A stretch of 26,769 nucleotides of DNA from Verrucomicrobia subdivision 3 bacterium UBA3939 (GCA_002385705.1 DGDZ01000054.1:386-27154); one strand, 5' to 3'; shown: positions 6,574 through 22,637, counted from the stretch's first letter. Translations and numbers: made by a program. The notes: generated by a model not told the origin, from the letters alone.

Positions 6574-6867
6574 ATGGAACCCCAGAATCCAAAGTCCGGG
6601 ACAAGCCGGCTGCGCAAGGCGGTGGGCTACGACAAGCTCTCGCCGGCGGTGCGTCGCGTGGTGTGCGGCATTGTGGGTGGTTTTCTCCTGTTCATCGGGG
6701 TGGCACTGCTCTTTCTGCCCGGGCCGGCGTTCGTGGTCATCCCGCTGGCGCTGGCGGTGCTCGCGATGGAGTTCGCCTGGGCCCGGCGGTACTGGGACAA
6801 GGTCCGCGGCTGGGCGGAGAAAGCAAAGCAACGCGCGTGTCGGAAGCGGGCTACTGCTCGCGGATGA
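6574..6867 (+). CDS. Small two-TM membrane protein of the PGPGW family (PF09656-like).
   Basis: LLFLPGPAFVVIPLALAVLAMEFAW contains the PGP(A/G)(F/W) signature flanked by hydrophobic helices. A GAGG lies 4 nt before the ATG. The 3' end overlaps the pheT stop by 17 nt on the opposite strand. Confidence 0.55.
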   Translation: MEPQNPKSGTSRLRKAVGYDKLSPAVRRVVCGIVGGFLLFIGVALLFLPGPAFVVIPLALAVLAMEFAWARRYWDKVRGWAEKAKQRACRKRATARG

Positions 6868-9328
6868 CCGCCTGGAGGCTGGTCTTCAACGCTTCCACCA
6901 GTTTGTCGTGCGCCGCGTTCACCTCCGCATCGGTCAAGGTGCGTTCGGCACTGCGATACGTGAACGCATAGGCCATGCTCTTCTGGCCGGCAGGAATGTT
7001 CTTTCCGCGGAACACGTCGAACAGTTCCACCGATTCGAGATTGGCCGGTTTGGCTTTGCGCACGGTCTGCAGCACGGCTTCGTGCGTGACCGCTTCGGGC
7101 ACGACCATTGCCACGTCGCGCCGGCTCGATGGAAACGCAGGCAGCGGCTTGAAGGACTTCGCCGGGTTCCGCCGCGCGATCAACTGGTCGAAGCTCAGTT
7201 CCGCAAGAAAGACCGGGTCGCGCAGGTCATACTGACGGGCGAGGGCGGGATGCAGTTGGCCCATTTCGCCCAGGGGCAGTTTGCCGATCTGCACGTCGGC
7301 CGATTCGACGAACAGTCCTGCGGCTTCCGGGCGTCGGGTGTAGACCAGACCGCGCACGCCGAAGTGTTCAAAGAACTCCTCAAGGAATCCCTTGAGATCG
7401 TGCAGGTCGAACTTCGCGCCGCGCCCACTGCCGCTCCAGAAGAGCGGATCGCGCTGTCCGGTCAGGGCGATCGCGACGCGGCGTTCCTCCCGGATCTGTT
7501 CGCCCTGCCTGGAGAACACGCGTCCGATCTCGAACAGGCCGACGTCGTAGTTCTTCCGGTTCACGTTGTGCCGCAGTGCGTGGATCAGGCCCACCAATAG
7601 CGTGGGGCGCAACACGTCCATGTCTGCGCTGAGCGGATTGGCCAGGTCCACCAGGTGAACGCCGGATCTCGAGTTTTGAACCTCGGATCTGGAGATCAGC
7701 GTCTGGCCCTGGGCTTCGTTCAGGCCGAGGCCGGTCAACAGGCGCCGCGCTTCGGCAATTTGATCGTGCACGGCATCGAACTCGTTCGAACCAATGGCGC
7801 CGCGCGGCGGCGTGGCGGGGATCTTGTCAACGCCATGGAGCCGCGCGACCTCCTCGATGAGATCGACCTCGCGTTTCAGATCCACGCGGAAGCTCGGGAT
7901 GCGGAAGGTGGCGGGTTCGACCGGTGCGTCCGCGCCAACGGGTTTGGGCTTGCGATGGGTAATCTTCAATCCGAGCTGGCCGAGGTAATACTCGACTTCC
8001 TCGGGTTTGAGCTCGATCCCGAGCAGTTCGTTGACCTTGTGATGCCGCAAGGTGATCTCGCGCGGAGCGGCGGGTTTGGGATACGCATCGACGACACCGG
8101 CGGCGAGCGTTCCGCCGGCGGTCTCGAGAATCAGTTGCGCGGCGCGTTGGCTGGCCCAGTCGCAGATGCCCACGTCGGCCCCGCGCTCGAAGCGGTAGCT
8201 GGATTCGCTGCGCAGGCCGAGCGCCTTGCTGGTGCGGCGGATATTGCCGGGATGGAAGTTGGCGCTTTCGATCAACACATCGACCGTGCGTTCGTTGATC
8301 TCGGTGTTCTGGCCGCCCATGATTCCGGCGAGTGCGATGCCTTTCTGTTCGTCGGCGATCAGCAGCATATCCGCGTTGAGCACGCGCTGCTGGCCGTCGA
8401 GCGTTGTGAACTTCTCCCGGTCGGTCGCGCGGCGCACCACAATGGCGGGCTTCCCGTCCGCGCCCGGGGCGATAAGGTGATAGTCGAACGCGTGCAACGG
8501 CTGGCCGACTTCCATCATGACGTAGTTCGTCACGTCCACCACGTTGTTGATGCTGCGGATGCCGACCTTCTCGAGGGTGGTGCGGAGCCAGTCGGGGCTG
8601 GGGCCGATCTTCACGCCCTGAACCACGCGCGCCGTGTACCGCGGACACAATTCAGGGTCGGCAATACGCACGGTGACAAGACTCGACACCGGGGTCGCGC
8701 TTTCCTGGATTTTGATCTCGGGCAGGCGGAGAGGATTGCCCGTGAGGGCGGCGATTTCGCGAGCGATGCCGATGACGCTGTTCCAATCGGGCCGGTTCGG
8801 CGTGGTTTCCAGGTCGAACATCTCGTCGCTGCCGCCGCGCCCGAGGTACTCCGAGAACGGCTGGCCGACTTTGGCGTCCTCGCGCAGGATCAGCAGGCCT
8901 TCCTCGCGCTTGAGGCCGATGCTCTCCGGATCGATGCCGAGTTCATCCGCCGAGCACATCATTCCGTGCGATTCGACGCCGCGGATTTTGCCGACCTTGA
9001 TGGTAAATGGTTCCTTTTCGCCCGGTTTTAACGGCAGCGAGGCGCCCGGGAGGATCAGCGGAACCTTGTCGCCGGGCTTGAAATTGTTGGCGCCGCACAC
9101 GATCTGCCGCTCGCCCTGGCCGTCGTTGACGCGGCAGACGGAGAGTTTGTCGGCGTTCGGATGTTTGTCGCGGGTGAGGACCTGGGCGACGACGATGCCT
9201 TCGAACTCGCCGCCGATTCTGTGAATGCCTTCGACTTCCAAGCCGAGCATGGTGAGTCGATCGGCCAGTTCATCCGCCGACCAATCGAAATCCACGTACT
9301 GCCTGAGCCAATTCAGAGTGACTTTCAT
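6851..9328 (-). CDS. pheT: Phenylalanine--tRNA ligase beta subunit. The ORF is open to 9367 with a non-ATG first codon. The conserved N-terminus MKVTLNWLRQYVDFD starts 13 codons in.
   Basis: The canonical PheT N-terminus (MK..LNWLR.YV) is present. The tRNA-binding, B3/B4, B5 and C-terminal FDX-ACB-like regions are recognisable (e.g. HAFDY, MGGQNTEI). Length is 825 aa. Confidence 0.95.
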   Translation of the reverse strand: MKVTLNWLRQYVDFDWSADELADRLTMLGLEVEGIHRIGGEFEGIVVAQVLTRDKHPNADKLSVCRVNDGQGERQIVCGANNFKPGDKVPLILPGASLPLKPGEKEPFTIKVGKIRGVESHGMMCSADELGIDPESIGLKREEGLLILREDAKVGQPFSEYLGRGGSDEMFDLETTPNRPDWNSVIGIAREIAALTGNPLRLPEIKIQESATPVSSLVTVRIADPELCPRYTARVVQGVKIGPSPDWLRTTLEKVGIRSINNVVDVTNYVMMEVGQPLHAFDYHLIAPGADGKPAIVVRRATDREKFTTLDGQQRVLNADMLLIADEQKGIALAGIMGGQNTEINERTVDVLIESANFHPGNIRRTSKALGLRSESSYRFERGADVGICDWASQRAAQLILETAGGTLAAGVVDAYPKPAAPREITLRHHKVNELLGIELKPEEVEYYLGQLGLKITHRKPKPVGADAPVEPATFRIPSFRVDLKREVDLIEEVARLHGVDKIPATPPRGAIGSNEFDAVHDQIAEARRLLTGLGLNEAQGQTLISRSEVQNSRSGVHLVDLANPLSADMDVLRPTLLVGLIHALRHNVNRKNYDVGLFEIGRVFSRQGEQIREERRVAIALTGQRDPLFWSGSGRGAKFDLHDLKGFLEEFFEHFGVRGLVYTRRPEAAGLFVESADVQIGKLPLGEMGQLHPALARQYDLRDPVFLAELSFDQLIARRNPAKSFKPLPAFPSSRRDVAMVVPEAVTHEAVLQTVRKAKPANLESVELFDVFRGKNIPAGQKSMAYAFTYRSAERTLTDAEVNAAHDKLVEALKTSLQAVIREQ

Positions 9329-9386
9329 TGGGGCGGCAACGGTAATTGGCGGGGAGGAGGCAGTCAACAGAGGGGGTTAAGGAAAA

Positions 9387-9436
9387 CACCCAACATCCAA
9401 ACACCCAACCTCCAACACCGAACATTCAACATCCAA
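9387..9436. repeat. Tandem heptanucleotide array, 7 units of CAYCCAA on the plus strand (TTGGRTG on the pheT-sense strand): cacccaa catccaa acacccaa cctccaa caccgaa cattcaa catccaa.
   Basis: Read directly. It is located 59-108 nt upstream of the pheT start, inside the pheT / SPFH divergent region. Confidence 0.6.
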
Positions 9437-9579
9437 TGAGGACGGCTCCAACAAGGCAAAGCTGAAGAGCTGAAATCAGAGTCAAGGAACCGTTTGCGGC
9501 TCGGTGGGCGTGATGTTCATTCCTGCTTGCTCCACGTGACAGCCGATCGGGCAACACAACGTTTTTCTGAAGAAATCGC

Positions 9580-9606
9580 TTGACGTTAATATCGAAGTGA
9601 TATCAC
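9580..9606 (+). promoter_or_regulatory. Candidate sigma70-type promoter for the SPFH operon: TTGACG followed by an extended -10 (tgaTATCAC).
   Basis: ttgacg at 9580-9585; gTGaTATCAC at 9597-9606. The AAAGGA Shine-Dalgarno is 9 nt before ATG 9634. Confidence 0.3.
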
Positions 9607-9633
9607 ATCGATACCAAGAAAGGACCTGTGAAT

Positions 9634-10644
9634 ATGAACTCGAATCCTGTGAAGTCGGTCAGTCGCGAGCGAACGGTCAACGCGGTCAATGGCTGGGCCA
9701 TGTTGTTCTTCAATGTCCTGCTCCTGCTGGGCGGAATAGCCGGGATCGTCGCAACGGTGACGAAGGTCGCGCGCACCAATGATCCGGCGTATCTCTGGTG
9801 GCTTGTTCCGTTCATATTCCTCGAGTTGCTTGCTTTCATCCTGATGTTCGGTCACTTCACGCTGCAGCCGAACGAGGCGCGGGTGTTGATCCTCTTCGGC
9901 GCCTACAAGGGAACCGTGCGCGAGAGCGGGTTCTGGTGGGCGAACCCGTTCTATTCCCGGGTCCGGACGAAAGTGCCGGTGCGTCCGACGACGGTGAACG
10001 TGCAGAGGGGGACTCACGGGCGCGATGTGGCGAGCGTCGTGCACCTGACGCGGGGAACGAAGATTTCGTTGCGCGCGCAGAATTTCAACAGCGACAAGCT
10101 GAAGGTGAACGACAAACGCGGGAACCCGATCGAGATCGCCGCGGTCGTGGTGTGGCGGGTGAAGGACACCGCGAGGGCGGCGTTCGACGTGGACGATTAC
10201 GAGAGTTACGTGCACATCCAGAGCGAGGCGGCGATCCGTCATATCGCGAGCCTTTACGCGTATGACCGCGGGGACGAGCATGAGCCGACGTTGCGCGAGA
10301 GCACGGACGAGGTGTCGGCGGGTTTGATGAAGGAGCTGCAGGAGCGTCTGGAGAAGGCGGGCGTGGTGGTCGAGGAAGCGCGTCTGACGCACCTGGCGTA
10401 TGCGCCGGAGATTGCGCAGGCGATGTTGCGCCGGCAGCAGGCGGAGGCGGTGATTGCGGCGCGGCAGAAGATCGTGCACGGTGCGGTGAGCATGGTGGAT
10501 ATGGCATTGCGCGAATTGGCGGACAAGGCTGTGGTGAAGCTGGACGACGAGCGGAAGGCGGCGATGGTGAGCAACCTTCTGGTGGTGTTGTGCAGCGAAT
10601 CGGAGACGACGCCGGTGATCAATACGGGCACGCTGTATGCATAG
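9634..10644 (+). CDS. SPFH / band-7 (stomatin-prohibitin-like) membrane protein. The ORF track begins at GTG 9628, but the ATG at 9634 has better Shine-Dalgarno spacing.
   Basis: N-terminal TM ([18 protein letters not shown]... [18 protein letters not shown]), then SPFH-like blocks ([36 protein letters not shown]), then an A/E/R-rich helical C-terminus. Confidence 0.8.
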
Positions 10645-10649
10645 GACTC

Positions 10650-10814
10650 ATGCCTGAAGAGCGAAAGTCATTCCTGTTGCGGATCCCGCCCGATTTGTGG
10701 AAGGAGCTCGAGAAGTGGGCGGCGGACGAGCTGCGCAGTGTGAACGGGCAGATCGAATACATCCTGCGCCAGGCGGTGGAGAAACGCCGCCGGGCGCAGG
10801 AAAAGGAGGAATGA
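10650..10814 (+). CDS. Small Arc/MetJ-type ribbon-helix-helix DNA-binding protein (54 aa). It is 6 nt downstream of the SPFH gene.
   Basis: [47 protein letters not shown] matches the Arc-like beta-strand (SFLLRIP) plus two-helix pattern of PF03869-like proteins. The ORF track's upstream start at 10590 overlaps the SPFH gene and is not needed. Confidence 0.6.
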
Positions 10815-10836
10815 CGAAGGCAAGCCTTCGACGCCC

Positions 10837-10857
10837 CACACCGAACCTCCAACCTCC
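10837..10857. repeat. Short second copy of the heptad family: caccgaa cctccaa cctcc.
   Basis: It uses the same heptad units as 9387..9436 in the same orientation, 23 nt after the RHH gene stop. Confidence 0.45.
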
Positions 10858-11024
10858 GGGGCTCATTCTCGCCATTTTTCCCGTAGGGACTGCCGGGAAC
10901 AGCCCACCGCTCCGGCTAACGCGGCAGGCTGTCGGTTGTCCTTTCGGGAAGAAGAAACGGGCAGGCGCGGGTTGAATCCGGGACGCCACGCGGGTGCGGT
11001 TTCGAAAATCGCGCGGAATTTATA

Positions 11025-11052
11025 TTGGCACCCGCTTATTGTTCATGATAAC
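11025..11052 (+). promoter_or_regulatory. Weak candidate promoter for the flotillin-like gene (TTGGCA -N17- tGATAAC).
   Basis: It sits in the 330-bp gap before 11145. A strong Shine-Dalgarno (GAGGA) is 6 nt before ATG 11145. Confidence 0.2.
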
Positions 11053-11144
11053 CACGGAGCCATTACAGACGACCGTCTGTATGGCCAAATGAACCCGCTT
11101 TGCAAAAATCATTCGGGAGGAATCCCCTAACAACTTGAGGACCT

Positions 11145-13322
11145 ATGTTCTGGCTTAAACTTCTCATCGCATTTGTTGTCGTGGTCGCGATGTTTCTGGG
11201 AGTGGCATCGCTCTTCTGCATTCGCAAGATTCAGCCCGGCCGCGCCGGTGTGAAAACCGGCTGGGGCGGGATCAAGGTGTCCTTCGACTGGATGATCCGG
11301 ATCCCGCTGGTCCAGACCTATCACATCGTCGATATCTCGGTGAAGAAGCTCGAGATCTCGCGCAAAGGCAAGGACGGGCTGGTGTGCAAGGACAACATTC
11401 GCGCGGATATCTCGGTGGCATTCTACATCCGCGTGGAAGCGACGGAGGAAAGCGTGCGGAAGGTGGCGCAGATGCTGACGCCGGAGCGCGTGTCGGATAT
11501 GGTGCAGTTGCGGGAGCTGTTCGAGGCGAAGTTTTCCGAGGCGCTCAAGACGGCGGGCAAGCAGATGGAATTTCACGAGCTGTTCACGGAGCGGATCAAG
11601 TTCCGCGATCAGATCCAGGCGACGATCGGCAAGGACCTGGACGGGTTCCTGTTGCAGGACGTGGCGATCGACTACCTCGAGCAGACGCCGCTGGATCAGC
11701 ATGATCCGGACAACGTGCTCGACGCGGAGGGCATCAAGAAGATCACGCAGATCACGCAGCGCGAGCGGGTGGTTGCGAACGAGCACGCCCAGCGCGCCAG
11801 CGTGCAGATCGAGAAGGAGAACGCGGACGCGGACATTGCGCGGCGCGAGCAGAAGCGGCGCAACGAAGAGGACAATGCGCGGCAGACGCGTGCGATCACC
11901 GAGGTGCGGGCCAACGAGGAGGCCGAAGCGCGCAAAGTGATCGAAGCCCGCCGGCTCGAGGTTGAGGCCAAGCGGCTGGAAGTGGACGAGGCGATCCGGT
12001 TGCGGACGGAGGACATGAACCGCGCCGTGCAGGAGCGCGAATACACGGTGAAGAAGGAGCGCCAGCGGCTCGAACAGGAAGCGCTGCAGGAGGGCGAGGA
12101 AGCGCGCGTCCGGCGCGAGCGCACGGTCGCCCTGGCCGAGCTGGACAAGGACGCGAAGGTCGCGGAAGCCGGTGTCGAGGTCGAGCGCAAGCGCGCGATC
12201 GTCGTCGCCGAGCAGAAGGCCGTCGTCCAGCAGGAGGAGGAGAAGCTGAATATCGAAGCGCGCATGACCGCCGAGCGCGTGCGCGAAGTGACGCTCATCG
12301 AGGCGGACATGAACGCCAAGAAGGAGCAGGTGGAGAAGGTGGTGGCGGCCGAGGCGCAGAAGGAGGCCGAGCAGCACATGGCGGAAGCCGAGAAGATCAA
12401 GGTGATCACCGCGGCGGAGGCGGCGCGCGAAGCGGCGTTGCGCGAAGCCGAGCGCATCCAGACCATCGCGGAGGCCGAAGCGAAGGCGTCCGAGCGCAAG
12501 CGTCATGCGATGGAGCAGGAAGCCGAGGGTGTCGCGGCGCAGGAAGCCGCCAAAGGCATTGCCGAGGCGAAGGTCATCACGGCCAAGGCCGGCGCGAAGA
12601 AGGTCGATGCGGCGGCGATCCGCGAGTTGGGCCTGGCCGAGGCGGATGTGATCAAGGCCAAGGGCGACGTGACGGCGGAAGTGACGCAGATGCAGGCCGA
12701 GGCGGAAGCGGAAGGCACGAAGGACAAGGAGCTGGCGACTGCGGCCGGCATCCAGGCCAGGGGCCTTGCCGAAGCGAAAGCCATCGAAGAGAAGGCGAAA
12801 GCGATGAAGCTGCTGCACGAGGCGGGGCAGGCGCACGAGGAATTCCGCCTGCGCCTGGCGAAGGAGCGCGACGTCGAGCTCGCCGCCATCAACGTGGAAC
12901 GTTACATCGCGGAAGCGCACTCGAACATCGTGGGCGAAGCGCTCAAGAACGCGAAGATCGACATCGTGGGAGGCGAGAACGACTTCTTCGAGAAGGTGGT
13001 GCGGGCCGTGGGCAGGGGCAAGGCCGTGGACCGGCTGGTCCAGAGCAGCGCCACGCTGACCGACCTCAAGACCAGTCTGTTCAACGGCGACGCGGAACAC
13101 TTCCGGGCGAAGCTGCGGCAGTGGGTGAAGGACTTCGGGGTCACGAGCGAGGACCTGAAGAACCTCACTGTGGCGGCGTTGCTGGCGAAACTGATCGCAT
13201 CGACGAAGGACAGCGGGCTGCAGTCGGTTCTCCGGTCGGCTCAGGCGATGGCAAAAGAGAGCGGGCTGGGCGACGTGCTGGCTTCGTCCGTGATTTCGGA
13301 ACCCGAGCTTGCCAAGCTGTAG
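11145..13322 (+). CDS. Flotillin-like protein (SPFH domain plus a long E/A/K/R-rich coiled coil, YqiK/FloT-like), 725 aa.
   Basis: N-terminal TM LKLLIAFVVVVAMFLGVASLF, then an SPFH core (TYHIVDISVKKLEI...ADISVAFYIRV), then ~350 aa of EA-repeat coiled coil and a globular C-terminal tail. This is the typical flotillin architecture. Confidence 0.85.
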   Translation: MFWLKLLIAFVVVVAMFLGVASLFCIRKIQPGRAGVKTGWGGIKVSFDWMIRIPLVQTYHIVDISVKKLEISRKGKDGLVCKDNIRADISVAFYIRVEATEESVRKVAQMLTPERVSDMVQLRELFEAKFSEALKTAGKQMEFHELFTERIKFRDQIQATIGKDLDGFLLQDVAIDYLEQTPLDQHDPDNVLDAEGIKKITQITQRERVVANEHAQRASVQIEKENADADIARREQKRRNEEDNARQTRAITEVRANEEAEARKVIEARRLEVEAKRLEVDEAIRLRTEDMNRAVQEREYTVKKERQRLEQEALQEGEEARVRRERTVALAELDKDAKVAEAGVEVERKRAIVVAEQKAVVQQEEEKLNIEARMTAERVREVTLIEADMNAKKEQVEKVVAAEAQKEAEQHMAEAEKIKVITAAEAAREAALREAERIQTIAEAEAKASERKRHAMEQEAEGVAAQEAAKGIAEAKVITAKAGAKKVDAAAIRELGLAEADVIKAKGDVTAEVTQMQAEAEAEGTKDKELATAAGIQARGLAEAKAIEEKAKAMKLLHEAGQAHEEFRLRLAKERDVELAAINVERYIAEAHSNIVGEALKNAKIDIVGGENDFFEKVVRAVGRGKAVDRLVQSSATLTDLKTSLFNGDAEHFRAKLRQWVKDFGVTSEDLKNLTVAALLAKLIASTKDSGLQSVLRSAQAMAKESGLGDVLASSVISEPELAKL

Positions 13323-13337
13323 AGGCGCCGCGGCGCT

Positions 13338-13358
13338 CCGGAGCGGACGCGTGTCCGC
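13338..13358. repeat. REP-like element (ccggagcg + hairpin gcggac-gcgt-gtccgc) in the 54-bp flotillin / giant-gene spacer. It is preceded by the 12-nt perfect palindrome gcgccgcggcgc.
   Basis: Read directly. Confidence 0.45.
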
Positions 13359-13376
13359 CCCGAACTGGTTTCGATC

Positions 13377-16300
13377 ATGGCCAGGAAAAAGTCAGATCCA
13401 CCCGCGCCGGTAGAGGCCACCGCTGCCGGCGCGCCGTCGGAGGCTTCACCCGCGTCCGATTCGGCGGCGCAGGCGCTGGGCAGCGCCACGTACGAGATCA
13501 TCCGGCAGCGCCTGCACGGGCTGGGCTCGACGTTGCGCGAGCGGATGTCGCAGTTGAACCGCCGGCGGCAGGAGGTGTTCGGCTCGGTCGAGTTCAAGCT
13601 GTTGCAGGCCGATCGCGTGGTGACGGCGCACAACTGCATTCCGCGCGACATGGTGCAGTTGGGCGATCAGCAGTTCCTGTTCGGGTTCAACGTGCAGTTC
13701 GGGTTGAAGAAAGAGATCGGCCTTGCGGACGTGTTTGCGATCTACACGCGCGACGAGGCGTCCGGGACATTCAAGGAGGCGGGGCTTGAACCGTTGCAGG
13801 ATCCGAACTTCGTCACGGATTTCAAACGGCTCTACAACGTTTACGAGAAGGCGTTCTTCGCCAAGTTCTCCGTCATCGAGGGCAAGCTCTACATGGTGTT
13901 CCGCGTGGGCACGAGCGTGACGGACATCGCCGTGTTCAAGTGGGCGTTCGATGACGGCCGGCTGCACTATGTGGACGGGCGGGCGGAGACCGAGTACCGC
14001 CGTGTCGGCTTTCCGCCGCAATACGAGTTCGCGTGGCGCACGCCGGACCGCGAGTCGTTCCGCTACGGCGACCACCCGCATGTTTCGATCGAGGATCGCG
14101 TTTTCGTCGAATGCGTCGGTGGCGACATCACGATCAAGGTCGAGGACAACACGAAGACGGGGGAGGGCATTTATTCGGAGCCGGTGGAGGACAAGTATCA
14201 GAAGGTGGACGACGCGGAGATCGCGTATGCGATCATCGGGCACGTGATTCTGTTGAAGATGCGGCCGTACAAGGAGAACCGGCCGCGGTACTTCATTTAC
14301 AATGAGAAGACCCAGACGGCGCACCGGGTGGATTCCATCGGGCAATCGTGCGCGCTGTTGCCGGAGGACCACGGGTTGATCTTCCCGGACGGGTATTACC
14401 TGGGGACGGGGGAATTGAAGCTGTTCGAGAGCAAGGAACAGGGAATGGCGATCGAGCGGGTCGTGCATTCTCCGAACGGCGAGGACGCGCTGTATGTCTT
14501 CTACAACCGCGAGAGCGGCGAGTACGTGCTGATGCCGTACCGATTGATTCCGCAGAAGGTGGAGGAACGCATCACCTGCCATGGCTTCTCGCTGTTCCCG
14601 TCCGGACACCTGCTGCTGTTCCGGGCGGAGGCGGAGCCGCAGAAGCACCACATGATTCAGTTGCGGCAGACGCCGTTCTATCAGCCCGGTTATGAACCGG
14701 CGGGACGAAAGGACGCGTTCCTGTATCAGGTCGGCAACAAGGACGTGGTGCGCTGCCTCGCGGAGTGCAACGAGGTGCTGACGCTGGTTGAAAAGGAGGA
14801 CCCGTACCCGGAGCTGTACGCGGATCTGGTGATGCGTTGCACGGCCATGCTGGACGCGTATCCGTGGCTGTCGGGCGAGGACGGGTTCAAGTTGGACGAA
14901 GCGCTGCGCGAGATCCGGAACGCGGCGGACAGGGCGGTGGACGAGTTCGACAAGGTGCGCCGCCTCAAGCGCGAGGCGGTGCAGCGCGTCAGCGACGTGC
15001 GCAAGCGGTGCGACGAACGGTTCCAGACCATCCGCCGCGCGAGCCTGAAGGCGCTGGGCGATTACGTCGTGAACCTGGCGGCGCTGCGCCAGTTGCGCGG
15101 GGAATTGATCACGCTCAAAGAGGTGCGCTACGTGGACCTCGCCCAGGTGGAGCTGATCGAGAAGGACGTGATCGCCCGGACGGCCGAGCTGTCGGACGCA
15201 ACGGTGAAGTTCCTGCTCAAACCGGAATCGCTGGACCCGTATCGGAAGCAGGCGGCCGGGTTTCTCGCGCAGGCCGGCAAAATCGCGAAGGTCGCCGAGG
15301 GCCGCGAACTCGAGAAGGCGGCTTCGGCCTCGGGCGCCGAGCTCGAGATGCTCATCGAGATCGTCAACAGCCTGAAGATCGAGGACGCGACGGAGACGAC
15401 GCGGATCATCGACGGGATCACGGCGGTGTATTCGACGTTGAACCAGGTGAAGGCGGCGTTGAAGCAGCGGATGCAGGAGCTGGCGGCGCACGAAGGGGCG
15501 GCGCAGTTCGCGGCGCAGATGAAGCTGCTGGGCCAGGCGGCGGCGAGTTATCTCGACCTGTGCGATACGCCGGCGCGTTGCGACGAGTATTTGAACCGGC
15601 TCACGGTGCAGATCGAGGAGCTCGAGGGGGTCTTTGCCGATTTCGAGGAATACACGGTGCAGTTGTCGGAGCGCCGGACCGAGCTGTACGAGGCGTTCGA
15701 GCAGCGGAAACTGGCATTGATCGAGCAGCGCAACCGGCGGGCGGGCGCGCTGATGACCGCGGCGGAGCGGATCCTGAAGGTGATCCAGAACCGTTTGAAC
15801 GGGTTCAAGACGGCCGAGGAGATCAACACCTACATGGCTTCGGACCTGATGGTCGCGAAGGTGCGGGAGATCATCGACCAGTTGATAGCGCTGGAGGACT
15901 CGGTCAAGGCGGACGATCTCGAGGGCCGGCTCAAGAGCGCGCAGCAGGAGGCGGTGCGCCAGCTGAAGGATCGCCAGGAACTGTTCGTGGACGGCGCGCC
16001 GGTGATCCAGCTGGGCAAACACAGGTTCAACGTCAACACGCAGCCGCTGGACCTCACCGTGGTGCACCGGGACGGGGTTCCCTGCGTTCACCTGACCAGC
16101 ACGAAGTTCTTCGAAGAGATCACCGATCCGGAGTACCTGTCCACGCGCGACGTCTGGGACCAGGAGGTGGTGTCCGAGAACGCGGACGTGTACCGCTCGG
16201 AATACCTTGCCTATCAGCTTTTGCGATCGCTGGAACCGGGCAATGGCGGCGCCGACACGAAGGCCAATGGCGCGGTGTCCGGCGCAAAGGCGACGCCGGC

Positions 16301-18872
16301 CGAGGTGCTGGCGCGATCGGACGAAGAGCGGCTGGCGATGGTGCAGGAGTTCGCGAGCGCGCGGTACCAGGAGGGGTACACGAAGGGCGTTCACGATCTG
16401 GACGCCGCGCGGATCTTCAGCGCCTTGCTGAACGCGCACGTGGCGCTGGAACTGGCGCGGTATCGCCCGGCGGCGCGCGCCTGCGCGTCCGTTTTCTGGT
16501 GCCGCTTCTGCCCGGAACCGGTGCGCGCCCTCTGGACGGCGAAGCTCAAGGGGTTCTCCGAGCGGAACAAGCTGTTTCCCGGTGAACGCGTCCAGCGCAA
16601 TTACATCGCCGCGCTGCAGGAACTGGTGCGCGAGTTCCTGCGGAACACGCCGCTGTATCCGGAGGAACTTGCGGACGACGCGGGCGAATATCTGTTCCAT
16701 GAACTGACCGGCGGCGAGGTGTTTGTTGTCAGCCGCGAGGCGCACCAGTTGTCGGTTGAGTTCGAGAAGCATCTTGCGGCGAAGGACGGGCGGCGCGTGT
16801 TTGAGCGGGCGCTCCAGCCGCTGGCGGAGCACCCGGACAGCGCGCTCGAACTGACGCGCGACTGGGTGCGGGGCTTTCTGCTGGGACGCCTCGGCACGTC
16901 GCAGTATCTCGAAGAAGTGACGTCGATCCTGTTCTGCGGCGACAAGGTGAAGCGGTCGGTCGTTCAGGCGGGAACCACCTGCGTCATCGAGGGGATGAGG
17001 GGCAGCCATCCGCGGATCGACGGGAACCGGTATCACTTCGATTATTTGGACTTTCACGACCGGTTGCGCCGGTTCGAGCGCGACGTCGTGCCGCGCTTTG
17101 AGCGGCATCGCGCCTTGAAACAGCAGTTGCTGGATCGGGAACGCGCGCGCCTGCGGCTGGACGAGTTCAAACCGCGCGTGCTGACGTCGTTTGTGCGGAA
17201 TCAGTTGATCGACCGGGTGTATTTGCCGCTGATCGGGGACAACCTCGCGAAACAGATCGGCGCCGCCGGCGACCAGAAACGCACCGATCTCATGGGCCTG
17301 TTGCTGGTGGTCTCGCCGCCCGGGTACGGCAAGACCACTCTGATGGAATACATCGCCAACCGCCTGGGCATCGTGTTCGTCAAGATCAACGGCCCCGCCC
17401 TTGGCCCGAACGTGACGTCGCTGGATCCCGAGGAAGCGCCGAACGCCGCCGCGCGCGAGGAGATCCAGAAGCTGAACCTCGCGCTGGAGATGGGCGACAA
17501 CACAATGATCTGCGTGGACGACATCCAGCATTGCAACCCGGAGTTTCTGCAGAAGTTCATCTCGTTGTGCGACGCGCAGCGGAAGATCGAAGGTGTCTGG
17601 CGCGGGCAACCGCGCACCTACGACCTGCGCGGGCGCAAGGTCGTGGTCGTGATGGCGGGCAATCCCTACACCGAGAGCGGCCAGAAATTCCGGATCCCGG
17701 ACATGCTCGCGAATCGCGCCGACACGTACAACCTGGGCGACATCATCGGCGGCCACGCCGACGCGTTCAAATCGAGCTACATCGAGAACGCGATCACCTC
17801 CAACCCCGTGCTGGCCTCGCTGGCGAACAAGAGCCAGAAGGACATCCGCGCGTTCATCCGCATGGCCGAGTCCGGCGACCGCGCCGCCGACGGCTTCGAG
17901 GGCAGTTACTCGTCGCAGGAGGTTGAGGAGATCCTGTCAGTGATGAAGAAGCTGGTGGCGATCCGCGAGATGGTGCTGCGCGTGAACCAGGAATACATCC
18001 ATTCGGCCGCCCAGGCGGATGAATTCCGCACCGAGCCGCCTTTCCGCCTGCAGGGTTCGTATCGCAACATGAATCGCCTGGCCGAAAAGGTGGTGCCGAT
18101 CATGAACGACGGCGAGGTGCGCGCGCTCGTGGTGGAACATTACCGGAACGAAGCGCAAACGCTCACCACCGGCGCGGAGGCGAATCTGCTCAAGTTCAAG
18201 GAGATCATCGGCGAGCTCTCGCCGGAGGAGAAGGCGCGCTGGGAAGAGATCAAGAAGACCTTCAAGCGCAACCAGCTCGTGCGCGGCGGCGACCAGTCGG
18301 ATCCGGTGGGGCGCGTGGTCGGGCAGTTGTCCGCCTTCCAGTCCGGGCTGCAATCGATCCAGGAAACGCTCGAAAAGCAGTTGTCGAAAGCGCAGGCGCC
18401 GGTGGTGCTGGACCTGTCGCCCGTGGGGAAGGGGTTGGAAGCATTGCAGGCGACGGTGGAGAAGCGGCTCAGCGAGGTGGCTTCATTCAAGCCCGGGCCG
18501 GAGCCGCAGGGAGTGGCCGCGCAATTGAGCGAGGGGCTGAAGGCATTGCGCGAGGACCTTGCCCGCGCGATCACGGCGGTGCACACGGGCACAATGGCAG
18601 AGAAGCTGCAAAGCCTGTCGCACGAGCTGGAGATGATCCACAGCACGCTGGCGACGTTGAAGGATCTTGCCGAGCAGCAGCGGAATCATCTGCGCAACGC
18701 GCAGGAACTGCTGGCCACCCGCGCGCGCCAGGGAACGGTGGAAATCGATCTGACGCAGGAGATGCTGGCGAATGAGCAAATGTTCCTCGAGAAAGTTCAG
18801 CAGGTGCTGAGCGAGGTGAAGGGCGAAGTGCCGCCGCCTGAAACGCAACCGGGTGAGCAGGGCCAAACCTGA
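13377..18872 (+). CDS. Giant 1831-aa protein with three parts. The first ~1300 aa are an uncharacterised, largely beta-rich N-terminal region. A single MoxR / AAA_5-class AAA+ ATPase domain follows. The last ~370 aa are a C-terminal coiled-coil tail.
   Basis: Walker A LLVVSPPGYGKTTL (nt ~17313-17345). Walker B and MoxR-like block MICVDDIQHCNPEFLQKFISLCD. Sensor-1 block VVVVMAGNPYTESGQKFRIPDMLANRADTYNL. Amino-acid composition is normal on the plus strand, whereas the 1436-aa antisense ORF is R/L/A-biased. Confidence 0.85.
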   Translation: MARKKSDPPAPVEATAAGAPSEASPASDSAAQALGSATYEIIRQRLHGLGSTLRERMSQLNRRRQEVFGSVEFKLLQADRVVTAHNCIPRDMVQLGDQQFLFGFNVQFGLKKEIGLADVFAIYTRDEASGTFKEAGLEPLQDPNFVTDFKRLYNVYEKAFFAKFSVIEGKLYMVFRVGTSVTDIAVFKWAFDDGRLHYVDGRAETEYRRVGFPPQYEFAWRTPDRESFRYGDHPHVSIEDRVFVECVGGDITIKVEDNTKTGEGIYSEPVEDKYQKVDDAEIAYAIIGHVILLKMRPYKENRPRYFIYNEKTQTAHRVDSIGQSCALLPEDHGLIFPDGYYLGTGELKLFESKEQGMAIERVVHSPNGEDALYVFYNRESGEYVLMPYRLIPQKVEERITCHGFSLFPSGHLLLFRAEAEPQKHHMIQLRQTPFYQPGYEPAGRKDAFLYQVGNKDVVRCLAECNEVLTLVEKEDPYPELYADLVMRCTAMLDAYPWLSGEDGFKLDEALREIRNAADRAVDEFDKVRRLKREAVQRVSDVRKRCDERFQTIRRASLKALGDYVVNLAALRQLRGELITLKEVRYVDLAQVELIEKDVIARTAELSDATVKFLLKPESLDPYRKQAAGFLAQAGKIAKVAEGRELEKAASASGAELEMLIEIVNSLKIEDATETTRIIDGITAVYSTLNQVKAALKQRMQELAAHEGAAQFAAQMKLLGQAAASYLDLCDTPARCDEYLNRLTVQIEELEGVFADFEEYTVQLSERRTELYEAFEQRKLALIEQRNRRAGALMTAAERILKVIQNRLNGFKTAEEINTYMASDLMVAKVREIIDQLIALEDSVKADDLEGRLKSAQQEAVRQLKDRQELFVDGAPVIQLGKHRFNVNTQPLDLTVVHRDGVPCVHLTSTKFFEEITDPEYLSTRDVWDQEVVSENADVYRSEYLAYQLLRSLEPGNGGADTKANGAVSGAKATPAEVLARSDEERLAMVQEFASARYQEGYTKGVHDLDAARIFSALLNAHVALELARYRPAARACASVFWCRFCPEPVRALWTAKLKGFSERNKLFPGERVQRNYIAALQELVREFLRNTPLYPEELADDAGEYLFHELTGGEVFVVSREAHQLSVEFEKHLAAKDGRRVFERALQPLAEHPDSALELTRDWVRGFLLGRLGTSQYLEEVTSILFCGDKVKRSVVQAGTTCVIEGMRGSHPRIDGNRYHFDYLDFHDRLRRFERDVVPRFERHRALKQQLLDRERARLRLDEFKPRVLTSFVRNQLIDRVYLPLIGDNLAKQIGAAGDQKRTDLMGLLLVVSPPGYGKTTLMEYIANRLGIVFVKINGPALGPNVTSLDPEEAPNAAAREEIQKLNLALEMGDNTMICVDDIQHCNPEFLQKFISLCDAQRKIEGVWRGQPRTYDLRGRKVVVVMAGNPYTESGQKFRIPDMLANRADTYNLGDIIGGHADAFKSSYIENAITSNPVLASLANKSQKDIRAFIRMAESGDRAADGFEGSYSSQEVEEILSVMKKLVAIREMVLRVNQEYIHSAAQADEFRTEPPFRLQGSYRNMNRLAEKVVPIMNDGEVRALVVEHYRNEAQTLTTGAEANLLKFKEIIGELSPEEKARWEEIKKTFKRNQLVRGGDQSDPVGRVVGQLSAFQSGLQSIQETLEKQLSKAQAPVVLDLSPVGKGLEALQATVEKRLSEVASFKPGPEPQGVAAQLSEGLKALREDLARAITAVHTGTMAEKLQSLSHELEMIHSTLATLKDLAEQQRNHLRNAQELLATRARQGTVEIDLTQEMLANEQMFLEKVQQVLSEVKGEVPPPETQPGEQGQT

Positions 18873-18880
18873 AACGCAAT

Positions 18881-19714
18881 ATGAAAAGAATCATCAGACG
18901 AGTCCAGAACCTGGGCCAGAAAGCGGCCCAGCTCCAACAGGCCATTCAAAACGTGCCGCCGAAGATCGCGGAGGTGCGGCAGGCGGTGGCCATGACGACC
19001 GGGCAGTTACAGCAGTTGCGAGCCGACCTCCGGGCCGGCGCGGCGGACCTGCGCGCCGACAACGAAGGCAGCCTGGTGCAGGCGTTGAACGAAGTGAACG
19101 GCGCCACGCAGGTCTTCGAACAGGCCGGGTATGAACTGACGGGCGTGGACATGGAATTGAGTCCGAACCAGCGCCTGATCGTTCACCTGGCGCGTTTCGA
19201 AGTGGTGGATCAGAGAACGCTCCAGTCCCTGCTCAGGGCCAATCAGCATGCAAAGACCGTTCACGGCATTCTCTGGTCGTTGATCCGCGCCGAGGAAATG
19301 GCGGCGCAGGTGGACGTGACGAACATGGTTTACCGGGAACTCATTGTGCACGTCGGGCCGATTCCGTCGGTGCGGATGAGCTGGGGCTATGCCGAGGAGG
19401 AGGAGGAGGAGGCACCGGTGGCACAGCCGGCGCCCGTTCAGACGACCGTGGTGTCCGGTGCCGCGCCGGCATCGGCGTCCGCTCCGACACAGTTCGCACA
19501 AACGACGTTTTTCGAATCGCGGTCGGTGCCGCAGCCGCAGGGTTCGGCGGCGGTGGCGAGCACGGCGACTTCGGATGTTTCGGCGACAACGACCGTCGCG
19601 CCCGCGGGCCAGGCGGAGGAATCGAGAGAGATGACATCGGCCGATTGGCGGCGGGATGCGCTGGAGCGGTTGAAGAAGAACCCGCATGTCTCGAAGTATC
19701 AGCGGCGGTTCTGA
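18881..19714 (+). CDS. Hypothetical 277-aa protein with an N-terminal coiled coil (Q/A/L-rich), a poly-Glu tract (EEEEEE), an A/T/S/V/Q-rich disordered region and a basic C-terminus. Its start is 8 nt after the giant gene stop.
   Basis: The ORF is in frame. Its composition is protein-like and differs from the antisense frames. Its tight spacing suggests translational coupling to the giant gene. Confidence 0.5.
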   Translation: MKRIIRRVQNLGQKAAQLQQAIQNVPPKIAEVRQAVAMTTGQLQQLRADLRAGAADLRADNEGSLVQALNEVNGATQVFEQAGYELTGVDMELSPNQRLIVHLARFEVVDQRTLQSLLRANQHAKTVHGILWSLIRAEEMAAQVDVTNMVYRELIVHVGPIPSVRMSWGYAEEEEEEAPVAQPAPVQTTVVSGAAPASASAPTQFAQTTFFESRSVPQPQGSAAVASTATSDVSATTTVAPAGQAEESREMTSADWRRDALERLKKNPHVSKYQRRF

Positions 19715-21605: not shown

Positions 21606-22637
21606 TCAGAATTGCTTCAGGAAACGCAGGTCGTTCTCGTAGAACAACCGGATGTCGGTGATCCCGTAACGGATCATCGCGATGCGCTCGATGCCGAACC
21701 CGAACGCCCAGCCCGTCCAGACCTCCGGATCGTAACCCACATTCTCGAACACCTGCGGATGCACCATGCCGCACCCGGCGATCTCCAGCCACTCCTTGCC
21801 CATCTTCCGGACGAGCGAACTGGTGAAATCGATCTCGAAACTCGGTTCGGTATAACTGAAGTAGTGCGGGCGAAACCGGATTTTCACATCCGATCCCATC
21901 AGTTCCTTGAACACGAACTCGACAGTGCCTTTCAGGTCGGCCGCGGTGACCCCTTTATCGACGTACAATCCTTCGACCTGCTGGAAGGTCGGGTTGTGCG
22001 TGGCATCGGCGTTGTCGCGCCGGTAAACGCGGCCCGGCACGATGATGCGCACCGGCGGCGGCTGCTTCTTCATCACGCGGATCTGCACCGAGCTCGTGTG
22101 CGTGCGCAGCAGCAATGACTTCGGACCCCGGATTTCGGATTTCGGGTCGTTCTGAAGGTAAAAGGTGTCCTGTGTATCGCGCGCCGGGTGATCGGCCGGC
22201 GTGTTCAACGCGTCGAAACAATGATACTCGTCCTCGACCTCGGGCCCGTCGGCGACGGCGAAGCCGATTTTGCGGAAACTGCGGACGATGTCCTCGGTGA
22301 CCTGGGTGAGCGGGTGCAGTCTGCCGAGGACGCGCCGACGGCCGGGCAGGGTGAAGTCGGCCGGCTCGGACGGCATGGCGGCTTTCAATTCGAGCTCGCT
22401 GCGGCGGCGCGCGAGCACGGTTTCGAGCTCGGCTTTGGCGGCGTTGATGGCCTTTCCGGCGGCGGGTTTTTCCTCTTTGGGAAGCGAGCCGAGCTGCTTC
22501 ATGAGGGCGGTGAAGCGGCCGTGCGGGCCGATCCAATTGCCCTTGGCCTGCTCGAGCGCGGCAAGGTCAGCGGCATTCTGCAGGTCGGCCAGACCCGCGG
22601 ACTTCAACGGTTCAATCTGATCGATTAATCCAGCCAT
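21606..22637 (-). CDS. pheS: Phenylalanine--tRNA ligase alpha subunit.
   Basis: Class II aaRS motifs and the diagnostic PheS C-terminus are present (FGFGIERIAMIRYGITDIRLFYENDLRFLKQF, HPARD, GLYVDKG). Confidence 0.95.
   Translation of the reverse strand: MAGLIDQIEPLKSAGLADLQNAADLAALEQAKGNWIGPHGRFTALMKQLGSLPKEEKPAAGKAINAAKAELETVLARRRSELELKAAMPSEPADFTLPGRRRVLGRLHPLTQVTEDIVRSFRKIGFAVADGPEVEDEYHCFDALNTPADHPARDTQDTFYLQNDPKSEIRGPKSLLLRTHTSSVQIRVMKKQPPPVRIIVPGRVYRRDNADATHNPTFQQVEGLYVDKGVTAADLKGTVEFVFKELMGSDVKIRFRPHYFSYTEPSFEIDFTSSLVRKMGKEWLEIAGCGMVHPQVFENVGYDPEVWTGWAFGFGIERIAMIRYGITDIRLFYENDLRFLKQF

Follow-up and report, generated by a model that had tools for sequence, protein, structure and literature searches.

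Tandem heptanucleotide repeats have been described in several bacterial lineages. In Xanthomonas (unit GGGAATC) and Nostoc (unit GGGGA[C/T]T), heptameric repeats are ~90% intergenic, sit at a mean distance of 28 nt from where the upstream open reading frame (ORF) ends, are in some cases paired in inverted orientation and show lineage-specific abundance (PMC4692102, Rehm et al. 2015), while promoter-proximal heptamers have been reported in Nostoc (bioRxiv 10.1101/2022.06.06.494920). TAACTGA direct repeats are found in Beggiatoaceae, cyanobacteria and Bacteroidetes (MacGregor 2015, PMC4679880). Function is unproven in the Xanthomonas, Nostoc and TAACTGA cases (PMC4692102; PMC4679880; bioRxiv 10.1101/2022.06.06.494920). 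Related comparisons are provided by the survey of long simple-sequence repeats (SSRs) of Mrazek et al. 2007, as cited in PMC4692102, and by the repetitive extragenic palindromic (REP) superfamilies, which carry a GTAG or CGTC tag at one end (PMC3733652, Di Nocera et al. 2013). Here we analyzed a 26,769-nt stretch of DNA (the window) from Verrucomicrobia subdivision 3 bacterium UBA3939 (GCA_002385705.1, DGDZ01000054.1:386-27154), in which two heptad arrays, A and B, lie on either side of a gene pair encoding an SPFH membrane protein and a ribbon-helix-helix (RHH) DNA-binding protein. We conclude, with a probability of about 0.6, that A and B belong to a family of REP-like, heptanucleotide simple-sequence repeats that is lineage-specific and intergenic, and that one of the two gave rise to the other by local spread.

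The two arrays are real, non-random and related to each other (Table 1). Array A is composed of seven CAYCSAA-type heptads with one additional A at 9401 (Tandem Repeats Finder period 7, 7.3 copies), in exact agreement with the seven-unit array that an earlier note on this DNA had placed at 9387–9436. The same note gave array B as 2.5 units at 10837–10857; the array stands as non-chance by simulation, but its true start is 10839, the earlier start having taken in an additional 'ca', and it comprises 2.7 units. Both arrays have the same orientation, lie 1.4 kb apart, and are the sole tandem sites of their kind on either strand of the window, the unit class having been derived from the copies themselves. 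Against a window G+C of 62.9%, array A has a single G in its 50 nt, and no 40-mer of the window is more skewed towards A+C (92% versus a mean of 48%, standard deviation 8%); array B ranks second. When the window without array A was simulated 300 times with a first-order Markov model, a 2-unit match occurred in 4.7% of runs, two adjacent exact A-type units in 0.3%, and a 2.7-unit match in none (0/300). The full units of array B, CACCGAA and CCTCCAA, are rare in the wider family (1.5% and 1.2% of 340 units, respectively) and stand side by side inside array A; because these two rare units adjoin within A, the arrays are taken as related by descent and not as independent draws.

The family to which we assign A and B was defined from a scan of public genomes with the pattern CMYCCAACMYCCAACMYCSAA (one genome per species, in an order that is not known), which returned at least 120 loci. 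Among the matches listed, 28 were labelled Verrucomicrobiota (Chthoniobacter, Pedosphaerales/Limisphaerales, Opitutales and subdivision 3), five contigs came from one Candidatus (Ca.) Acidoferrum genome (Acidobacteriota), and several genomes were matched on 2–5 contigs each. Among bacterial species Verrucomicrobiota account for only a few percent, which makes their share look like enrichment, with the caveat that the search pattern itself dictates which heptamer is recovered. A logo built from 65 arrays of at least three units in the matched genomes gave the strand-asymmetric architecture GGAAA-(CAYCSAA)n-TG, with CATCCAA (51%), CATCGAA (18%) and CACCCAA (6%) as the main units, AA, mostly as part of GGAAA or GAA, at positions −2/−1 in 92% of 64 arrays, and TG directly downstream in 51–55% of the 65. 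Array A sits in exactly these flanks (aaGGAAAA...CATCCAATGA).

Eighteen loci carry hairpin doublets, in which the array is followed by a 15–35 nt GC-rich spacer and then by the complement CA-(TTSGRTG)n-TTTCC. These doublets lie 5–95 nt from the nearest upstream stop codon (median ~35), and none of the 18 is in a divergent intergenic region. Solo arrays elsewhere often begin 5–25 nt past a stop codon with the C-rich strand as sense. Family arrays are mostly intergenic, with a minority placed in frame within genes (Table 1). All six frames of the common heptad units are free of stop codons, and in all five in-frame cases the C-rich strand is the sense strand, clear Pfam domains are found on either side of the array or across it, and the repeats encode loops rich in His, Pro, Thr, Ser, Asn, Ile and Gln. 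Copies inside one genome share spacer or flank sequence (L081/L113; Ca. Acidoferrum). Four near-identical doublets of the form GGGAA-(CATCCAA)5-TG-N17-CA-(TTGGATG)5-TTCCC were observed in Ca. Acidoferrum sp. SMAG_U14751 (L020, L046, L056 and L084), and since the shared sequence extends beyond the arrays these fit a multi-copy element. Conservation between genomes is seen in two Verrucomicrobiota loci of 75% nucleotide identity (L060 7276–7784 and L065 2232–2738), where arrays occupy the same two positions, in inverted orientation around a small four-helix-bundle gene of the 23S rRNA intervening-sequence type, and the orthologous arrays differ in unit number and content. The start of the four-helix-bundle coding sequence itself resembles complementary heptads.

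Other sightings include three contigs of metagenome-assembled genomes labelled Bifidobacteriaceae (L033, L043 and L132; 56–61% G+C), which bear Verrucomicrobia-type heptad elements and may be mis-binned, and three tandem ~280-nt units at L029 1578–2250, each opening with a short heptad array followed by identical TGAGAAAGATACTCGC... sequence. A literature search for the exact repeat strings found no bacterial paper.

Comparison with the described systems places the arrays closest to the heptameric SSRs. They are long SSRs in the sense of at least three tandem 7-nt units, imperfection allowed, in mainly non-coding DNA, A having seven units and B 2.7. Like the Xanthomonas and Nostoc repeats, they are built from a 7-nt unit in imperfect tandem, are strand-asymmetric, and lie near an upstream ORF end (25 nt for B and a median of ~35 nt for the family hairpins). 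Unlike those repeats, however, they have another unit sequence, whose complement contains only GG doublets in place of the GGG/GGGG runs and G-quadruplexes found there; they reside in a Verrucomicrobiota host; and for the Xanthomonas and Nostoc cases neither conserved GGAAA...TG flanks nor frequent long hairpin doublets have been described. The TAACTGA repeats and the cyanobacterial short tandemly repeated repetitive (STRR) heptamers are likewise sets of 2–7 tandem heptamers, mostly intergenic, phylogenetically patchy and in some cases within ORFs. The TAACTGA sets, though, are mostly located a few nt upstream of start codons in forward orientation, whereas here A is upstream of both neighbouring promoters and B is past a stop codon, and they differ between strains in 7-nt steps, a variation not found in the assemblies of this species. 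The likeness to REP/REPIN elements (Bertels and Rainey 2011, PMC3116915) lies in the family members elsewhere, which have inverted arms with a short spacer, form extragenic hairpins near gene 3' ends and also occur as solo copies. The arms are nonetheless tandem heptads and not a 20–40 nt palindrome, no GTAG/CGTC tag is present, and the window copies A and B are solo, in direct orientation and without a partner arm. No transposase domain was found among the called genes around the window, and the family has no known link to a transposase such as the REP-associated tyrosine transposase (RAYT).

Within the source genome, the survey covered the window plus one step on each side along a 70-kb same-species contig, 44.5 kb in all, and revealed a third array, C, so that three arrays, all intergenic, are found in this span. 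Array C lies 103 nt past a PAS/histidine-kinase (sensor-kinase) gene and is followed 25 nt later by trpA; both genes are read with the G/T-rich strand of the array as sense. At this locus trpB does not adjoin trpA. The third array, together with dozens of arrays bearing the same flanks in other Verrucomicrobiota and Acidobacteriota, whose unrelated settings extend to coding sequence, makes a dispersed low-complexity motif, one of the options raised in the earlier note, the best fit to the data, with the within-genome part of that statement covering 44.5 kb.

To define the setting of A and B, we examined the promoters and predicted RNA structures around them. A sigma-70 consensus scan returned no promoter in 9000–11400, and the promoter calls for pheT and SPFH rest on conservation. 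On the pheT side, both promoter-like hexamers are conserved in the relative L153, with a different spacer, and nucleotide similarity to L153 runs from the coding region through 9368, stopping 19 nt short of array A. The proximity of this motif to the start codon suggests that the pheT leader is very short or absent, because only 10 nt separate the two. On the SPFH side, three GATA-type boxes spaced ~10–11 bp apart, about one helical turn, accompany the candidate −35 and −10 elements. From array A it is 19 nt to the pheT −35-like hexamer and 143 nt to the SPFH −35, and since the array lies between two divergent core promoters and upstream of both, it is probably part of neither mRNA.

Array B is predicted to form the 20-nt loop of a GCCCC/GGGGC stem (10832–10861). 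The fold of 10805–10950, which takes in the hairpin downstream of B, has a free energy of −64.7 kcal/mol (z = −3.3; 1 of 200 shuffles equally stable), and this hairpin may be a 3' end structure of the SPFH-RHH transcript, as judged from the modelled fold. Array A has a fold z of +0.85. A decayed right arm for A was considered and rejected: in the minimum-free-energy fold, 9503–9524 is paired to the 5' portion of A, yet the alignment is at chance. The reverse complement of A, aligned locally with the downstream 164 nt, did not score above shuffles (P = 0.79) or above other windows; nor was a partner arm beyond chance found for B by local alignment.

Table 1. Features of the window, followed by array-bearing loci elsewhere; positions count from the first letter of the window unless a locus is named.
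Feature	Position	Strand	Description
Array A	9387–9436	+	CACCCAA CATCCAA (a) CACCCAA CCTCCAA CACCGAA CATTCAA CATCCAA
Array A with flanks	9381–9439	+	GGAAAA, seven heptads, TGA; family-type flanks
Array B	10839–10857	+	CACCGAA CCTCCAA CCTCC; 2.7 heptads, 19 nt
pheT	6851–9328	-	Gene left of the SPFH-RHH pair; ATG at 9328
pheT promoter-like TTGACT-N17-TACCGT	9339–9367	-	Ends 10 nt before the pheT ATG (9328)
Candidate SPFH promoter/operator	9580–9615	+	Conserved across six SPFH-RHH loci from different genomes
TTGACG	9580–9585	+	SPFH −35 in the candidate promoter
GATA-type box ATATCG	9589–9594	+	Candidate operator
GATA-type box GTGATATCAC	9597–9606	+	Palindrome; overlaps −10-like TATCAC
GATA-type box CGATACC	9609–9615	+	Candidate operator
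SPFH/Band_7 membrane protein gene	9634–10644	+	Pfam PF01145, E = 1.6e-25; outside the repeat family
RHH_5 (CopG/Arc-like) DNA-binding protein gene	10650–10814	+	Pfam PF07878, E = 1.4e-6
Strong imperfect hairpin	10878–10950	+	Downstream of array B; no U-run after it
Three-gene operon	11145–19714	+	p725 (725 aa), p1831 (1831 aa), p277 (277 aa); downstream of RHH
Array C	L213 4346–4366		CGTTCAA CATCCAA CGCTCAA, preceded by GGGGAATCGAA; intergenic, 5.3 kb left of the window
In-frame array	L127 3186–3206		Inside LeuA gene
In-frame array	L131 1629–1656		Inside LarC gene
In-frame array	L040 3689–3723		Inside HTTM/VKGC protein gene, linker
In-frame array	L071 1178–1212		Inside transketolase gene
In-frame array	L121 4908–4942		Inside AMP-binding enzyme gene

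The position of the arrays around a two-gene unit raises the possibility that they are junction scars, in which recombination or template switching at the arrays, or insertion into an existing array, placed SPFH-RHH between pheT and the p725 operon. Pfam confirms the SPFH and RHH genes that the earlier note had read between the arrays, and its statement that the arrays bracket this pair exactly holds insofar as these are the sole genes between A and B; the borders are looser, since 197 nt separate the end of A, which lies between the divergent pheT and SPFH genes, from the SPFH start codon, and B begins 25 nt past the RHH stop codon. Several observations agree with a scar: A and B share two rare unit variants in the same orientation, the similarity to L153 ends close to array A, and the three relatives with the pheT...p725 arrangement, which are distant (67–74% PheT identity), hold other genes and no arrays in the interval. 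Moreover, SPFH-RHH, which is conserved as a two-gene unit in Verrucomicrobiota, was found in five further Verrucomicrobia genomes (L009, L010-12, L220, L222 and L225), and its neighbours differ across all six. The resemblance to attL/attR sites or target-site duplications, in that related repeats in the same orientation flank a small gene pair of varying neighbourhood, does not extend to the hallmarks of such systems. An att-like identical core is not present at the two borders, and the longest exact string common to the window cassette flanks is 10 nt (AACCTCCAAC), which is within the range of shuffled sequences (mean 8.4, maximum 11). No recombinase, integrase or transposase domain was found in the window genes (Pfam) or in genes within ~10 kb (precomputed domains). 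Flanking direct repeats beyond chance were absent from all six cassettes, the window included, and no heptad arrays were found in 99 kb around the other five pairs, so that the arrays were rejected as a conserved SPFH-RHH feature. Array A retains an intact family 3' end (CCAATGA) and hence looks untruncated, and array C stands at an unrelated site. Genomes with a single array and no module, which the earlier note had proposed to look for, were sought among the 23 same-species contigs with the p725 gene; all of them also carry the SPFH-RHH module, and neither a cassette-less allele nor an empty site was found. Recombination or attachment scars, as the earlier note had suggested, are thus not supported, and we consider this origin unlikely. 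A broader proposal is that A and B represent an undescribed class of foldback element, GGAAA-(CAYCSAA)n-TG, spacer, CA-(TTSGRTG)n-TTTCC, that may spread across Verrucomicrobiota and some Acidobacteriota as non-autonomous mobile DNA or via a dedicated repeat-adding or repair activity, may colonise neighbouring intergenic regions and enter protein linkers in frame, and may provide breakpoints for gene-order change, including the placement of SPFH-RHH between pheT and the p725 operon. Taken jointly, these claims of a new class, of mobility and of a breakpoint role are doubtful.

Explanations in which the arrays serve a function are less probable still. They could be cis elements read heptad by heptad by a nucleic-acid-binding protein that insulates the operon or sets its ends, acting at the RNA level (an OB-fold, cold-shock or S1 protein, or Rho loading) or at the DNA level (a nucleoid or regulatory protein). 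The extreme composition of A, the placement of B past a stop codon as in solo arrays elsewhere with the C-rich strand as sense, the orthologous arrays of L060 and L065, and published proposals that heptamer repeats are protein-binding sites (PMC4679880; bioRxiv 10.1101/2022.06.06.494920) are consistent with such a role. A rut site, which is C-rich, G-poor and unstructured over ~60–80 nt of transcript, is matched in composition, but A is upstream of both conserved core promoters and B, with its 19 nt, offers little length for Rho to load on. Array C is oppositely oriented relative to its flanking genes, arrays also occur within coding sequences, and they are missing from orthologous SPFH-RHH modules. 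Nor did RNA searches point to a known element: Rfam gave no match in the window at the gathering threshold and none around the arrays at E <= 5, the 18 hairpin-bearing loci had no Rfam match apart from one tRNA, and no covariance model matched arrays or hairpins. We therefore regard a cis-acting function as improbable. Hypermutable copy number that switches expression of pheT or the SPFH operon, by analogy with the simple-sequence repeats near promoters that cause phase variation in several pathogens (PMC2651432), is highly improbable. A and B are base-for-base identical, in sequence and in unit number, in all assemblies of the species that cover them, from more than 10 samples that are maybe near-clonal, and because of this identity the arrays do not appear to be phase-variable; their heterogeneous units would also suppress slippage, and array A lies outside both core promoters. 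Least probable of all is a role of the arrays as operators for the RHH protein whose gene they flank, as the earlier note had put forward in speaking of iterated binding sites. RHH proteins of the CopG/Arc/MetJ family do bind repeated sites, and proximity favours the idea. The five genomes with an orthologous RHH gene, however, lack adjoining arrays, heptads are present in genomes and loci without this RHH gene, and a period of 7 bp is not in register with the turn of the DNA helix, while the GATA-type boxes overlap the −10 region and are conserved in six of six genomes. From the sequence, the RHH protein more plausibly binds these boxes over the SPFH promoter than the heptads, and the boxes are likely an autoregulatory operator. 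The SPFH-RHH module thus does not appear to depend on the arrays, having its own conserved promoter and operator candidate.

The local-copy reading that we favour would account for the arrays as follows. Heptad arrays would arise and change by replication slippage or by local copying of a heptamer seed, and would settle where insertions are tolerated, here in the non-coding DNA at both ends of a segment that is variable among relatives. Array B may have been seeded from A, or A from B, by local template switching or gene conversion, and such local spread is proposed as the cause of two related copies in adjacent intergenic regions. Any effect of the arrays would then be generic, with B adding a G-poor, C-rich unstructured stretch to the 3' untranslated region of the operon. 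Several points weigh against this reading. Dispersal throughout the source genome rests on three arrays in 44.5 kb, and the family is patchy, since 920 kb around p725 homologues (80 metagenome loci, 45–85% identity) contain one clear element, a CATCGAA hairpin in L157, with 2-unit matches at about chance (15 observed versus 2–12 in shuffles). The spacing of A and B (p ~0.1–0.2 by a rough estimate) may be no coincidence, and the shared origin of the two, with their place at the edges of a lineage-specific segment, lends the recombination-junction reading some weight, although it has no other support. The retention of arrays in L060 and L065 at 75% identity hints at persistence or function and not at neutral junk, and the recurrence of the heptamer across phyla is in part a product of the search pattern. 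Nothing, however, shows that the arrays mark a mobile module or bind its RHH regulator.

The surrounding genes add context. SPFH homologues number in the thousands in Verrucomicrobiota, and in relatives the RHH gene invariably comes after the SPFH gene. A prokaryotic STING-domain gene (L222 13565–14425) and PIN and TIR-domain genes (L010 16841–21011) lie within a few kb of SPFH-RHH in two of these genomes, where the neighbourhoods may be variable or defence-rich. In the operon downstream of array B, p725 is without any Pfam domain and p1831 has DUF3686/DUF7902/AAA domains; the gene order p725-p1831-p277 is kept in ~80 metagenome loci. PADLOC and NCBIfam made no defence assignment for SPFH, RHH, p725 or p277, and gave only a weak LmuB-like match for p1831. 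No tRNA or tmRNA was found in the window. We also observed that a methyltransferase gene and a 12-kb opposite-strand block, which extends from SPFH to a 178-aa gene, split pheT from pheS (21606–22637). Array A was ruled out as a breakpoint between the two, as L153 has the identical split, with pheS beyond the p725 block there too (tblastn); the split is therefore taken to be ancestral in the clade and unrelated to the arrays.

Together these results dispose of the tempting but unsupported idea that repeats bound a module that is mobile or under RHH control, and point instead to a candidate SPFH-RHH operator. The locus itself is largely ordinary, and the novelty lies in the family, with its conserved flanks, foldback doublets and in-frame invasion of genes. 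Heptad arrays break assemblies and can mislead binning as well as ORF calling, the latter because the common units are stop-free in any frame. For the question of how bacterial heptameric repeats arise and what they do, the orthologous pairs and within-genome copies of this family can be used to test slippage versus mobility.

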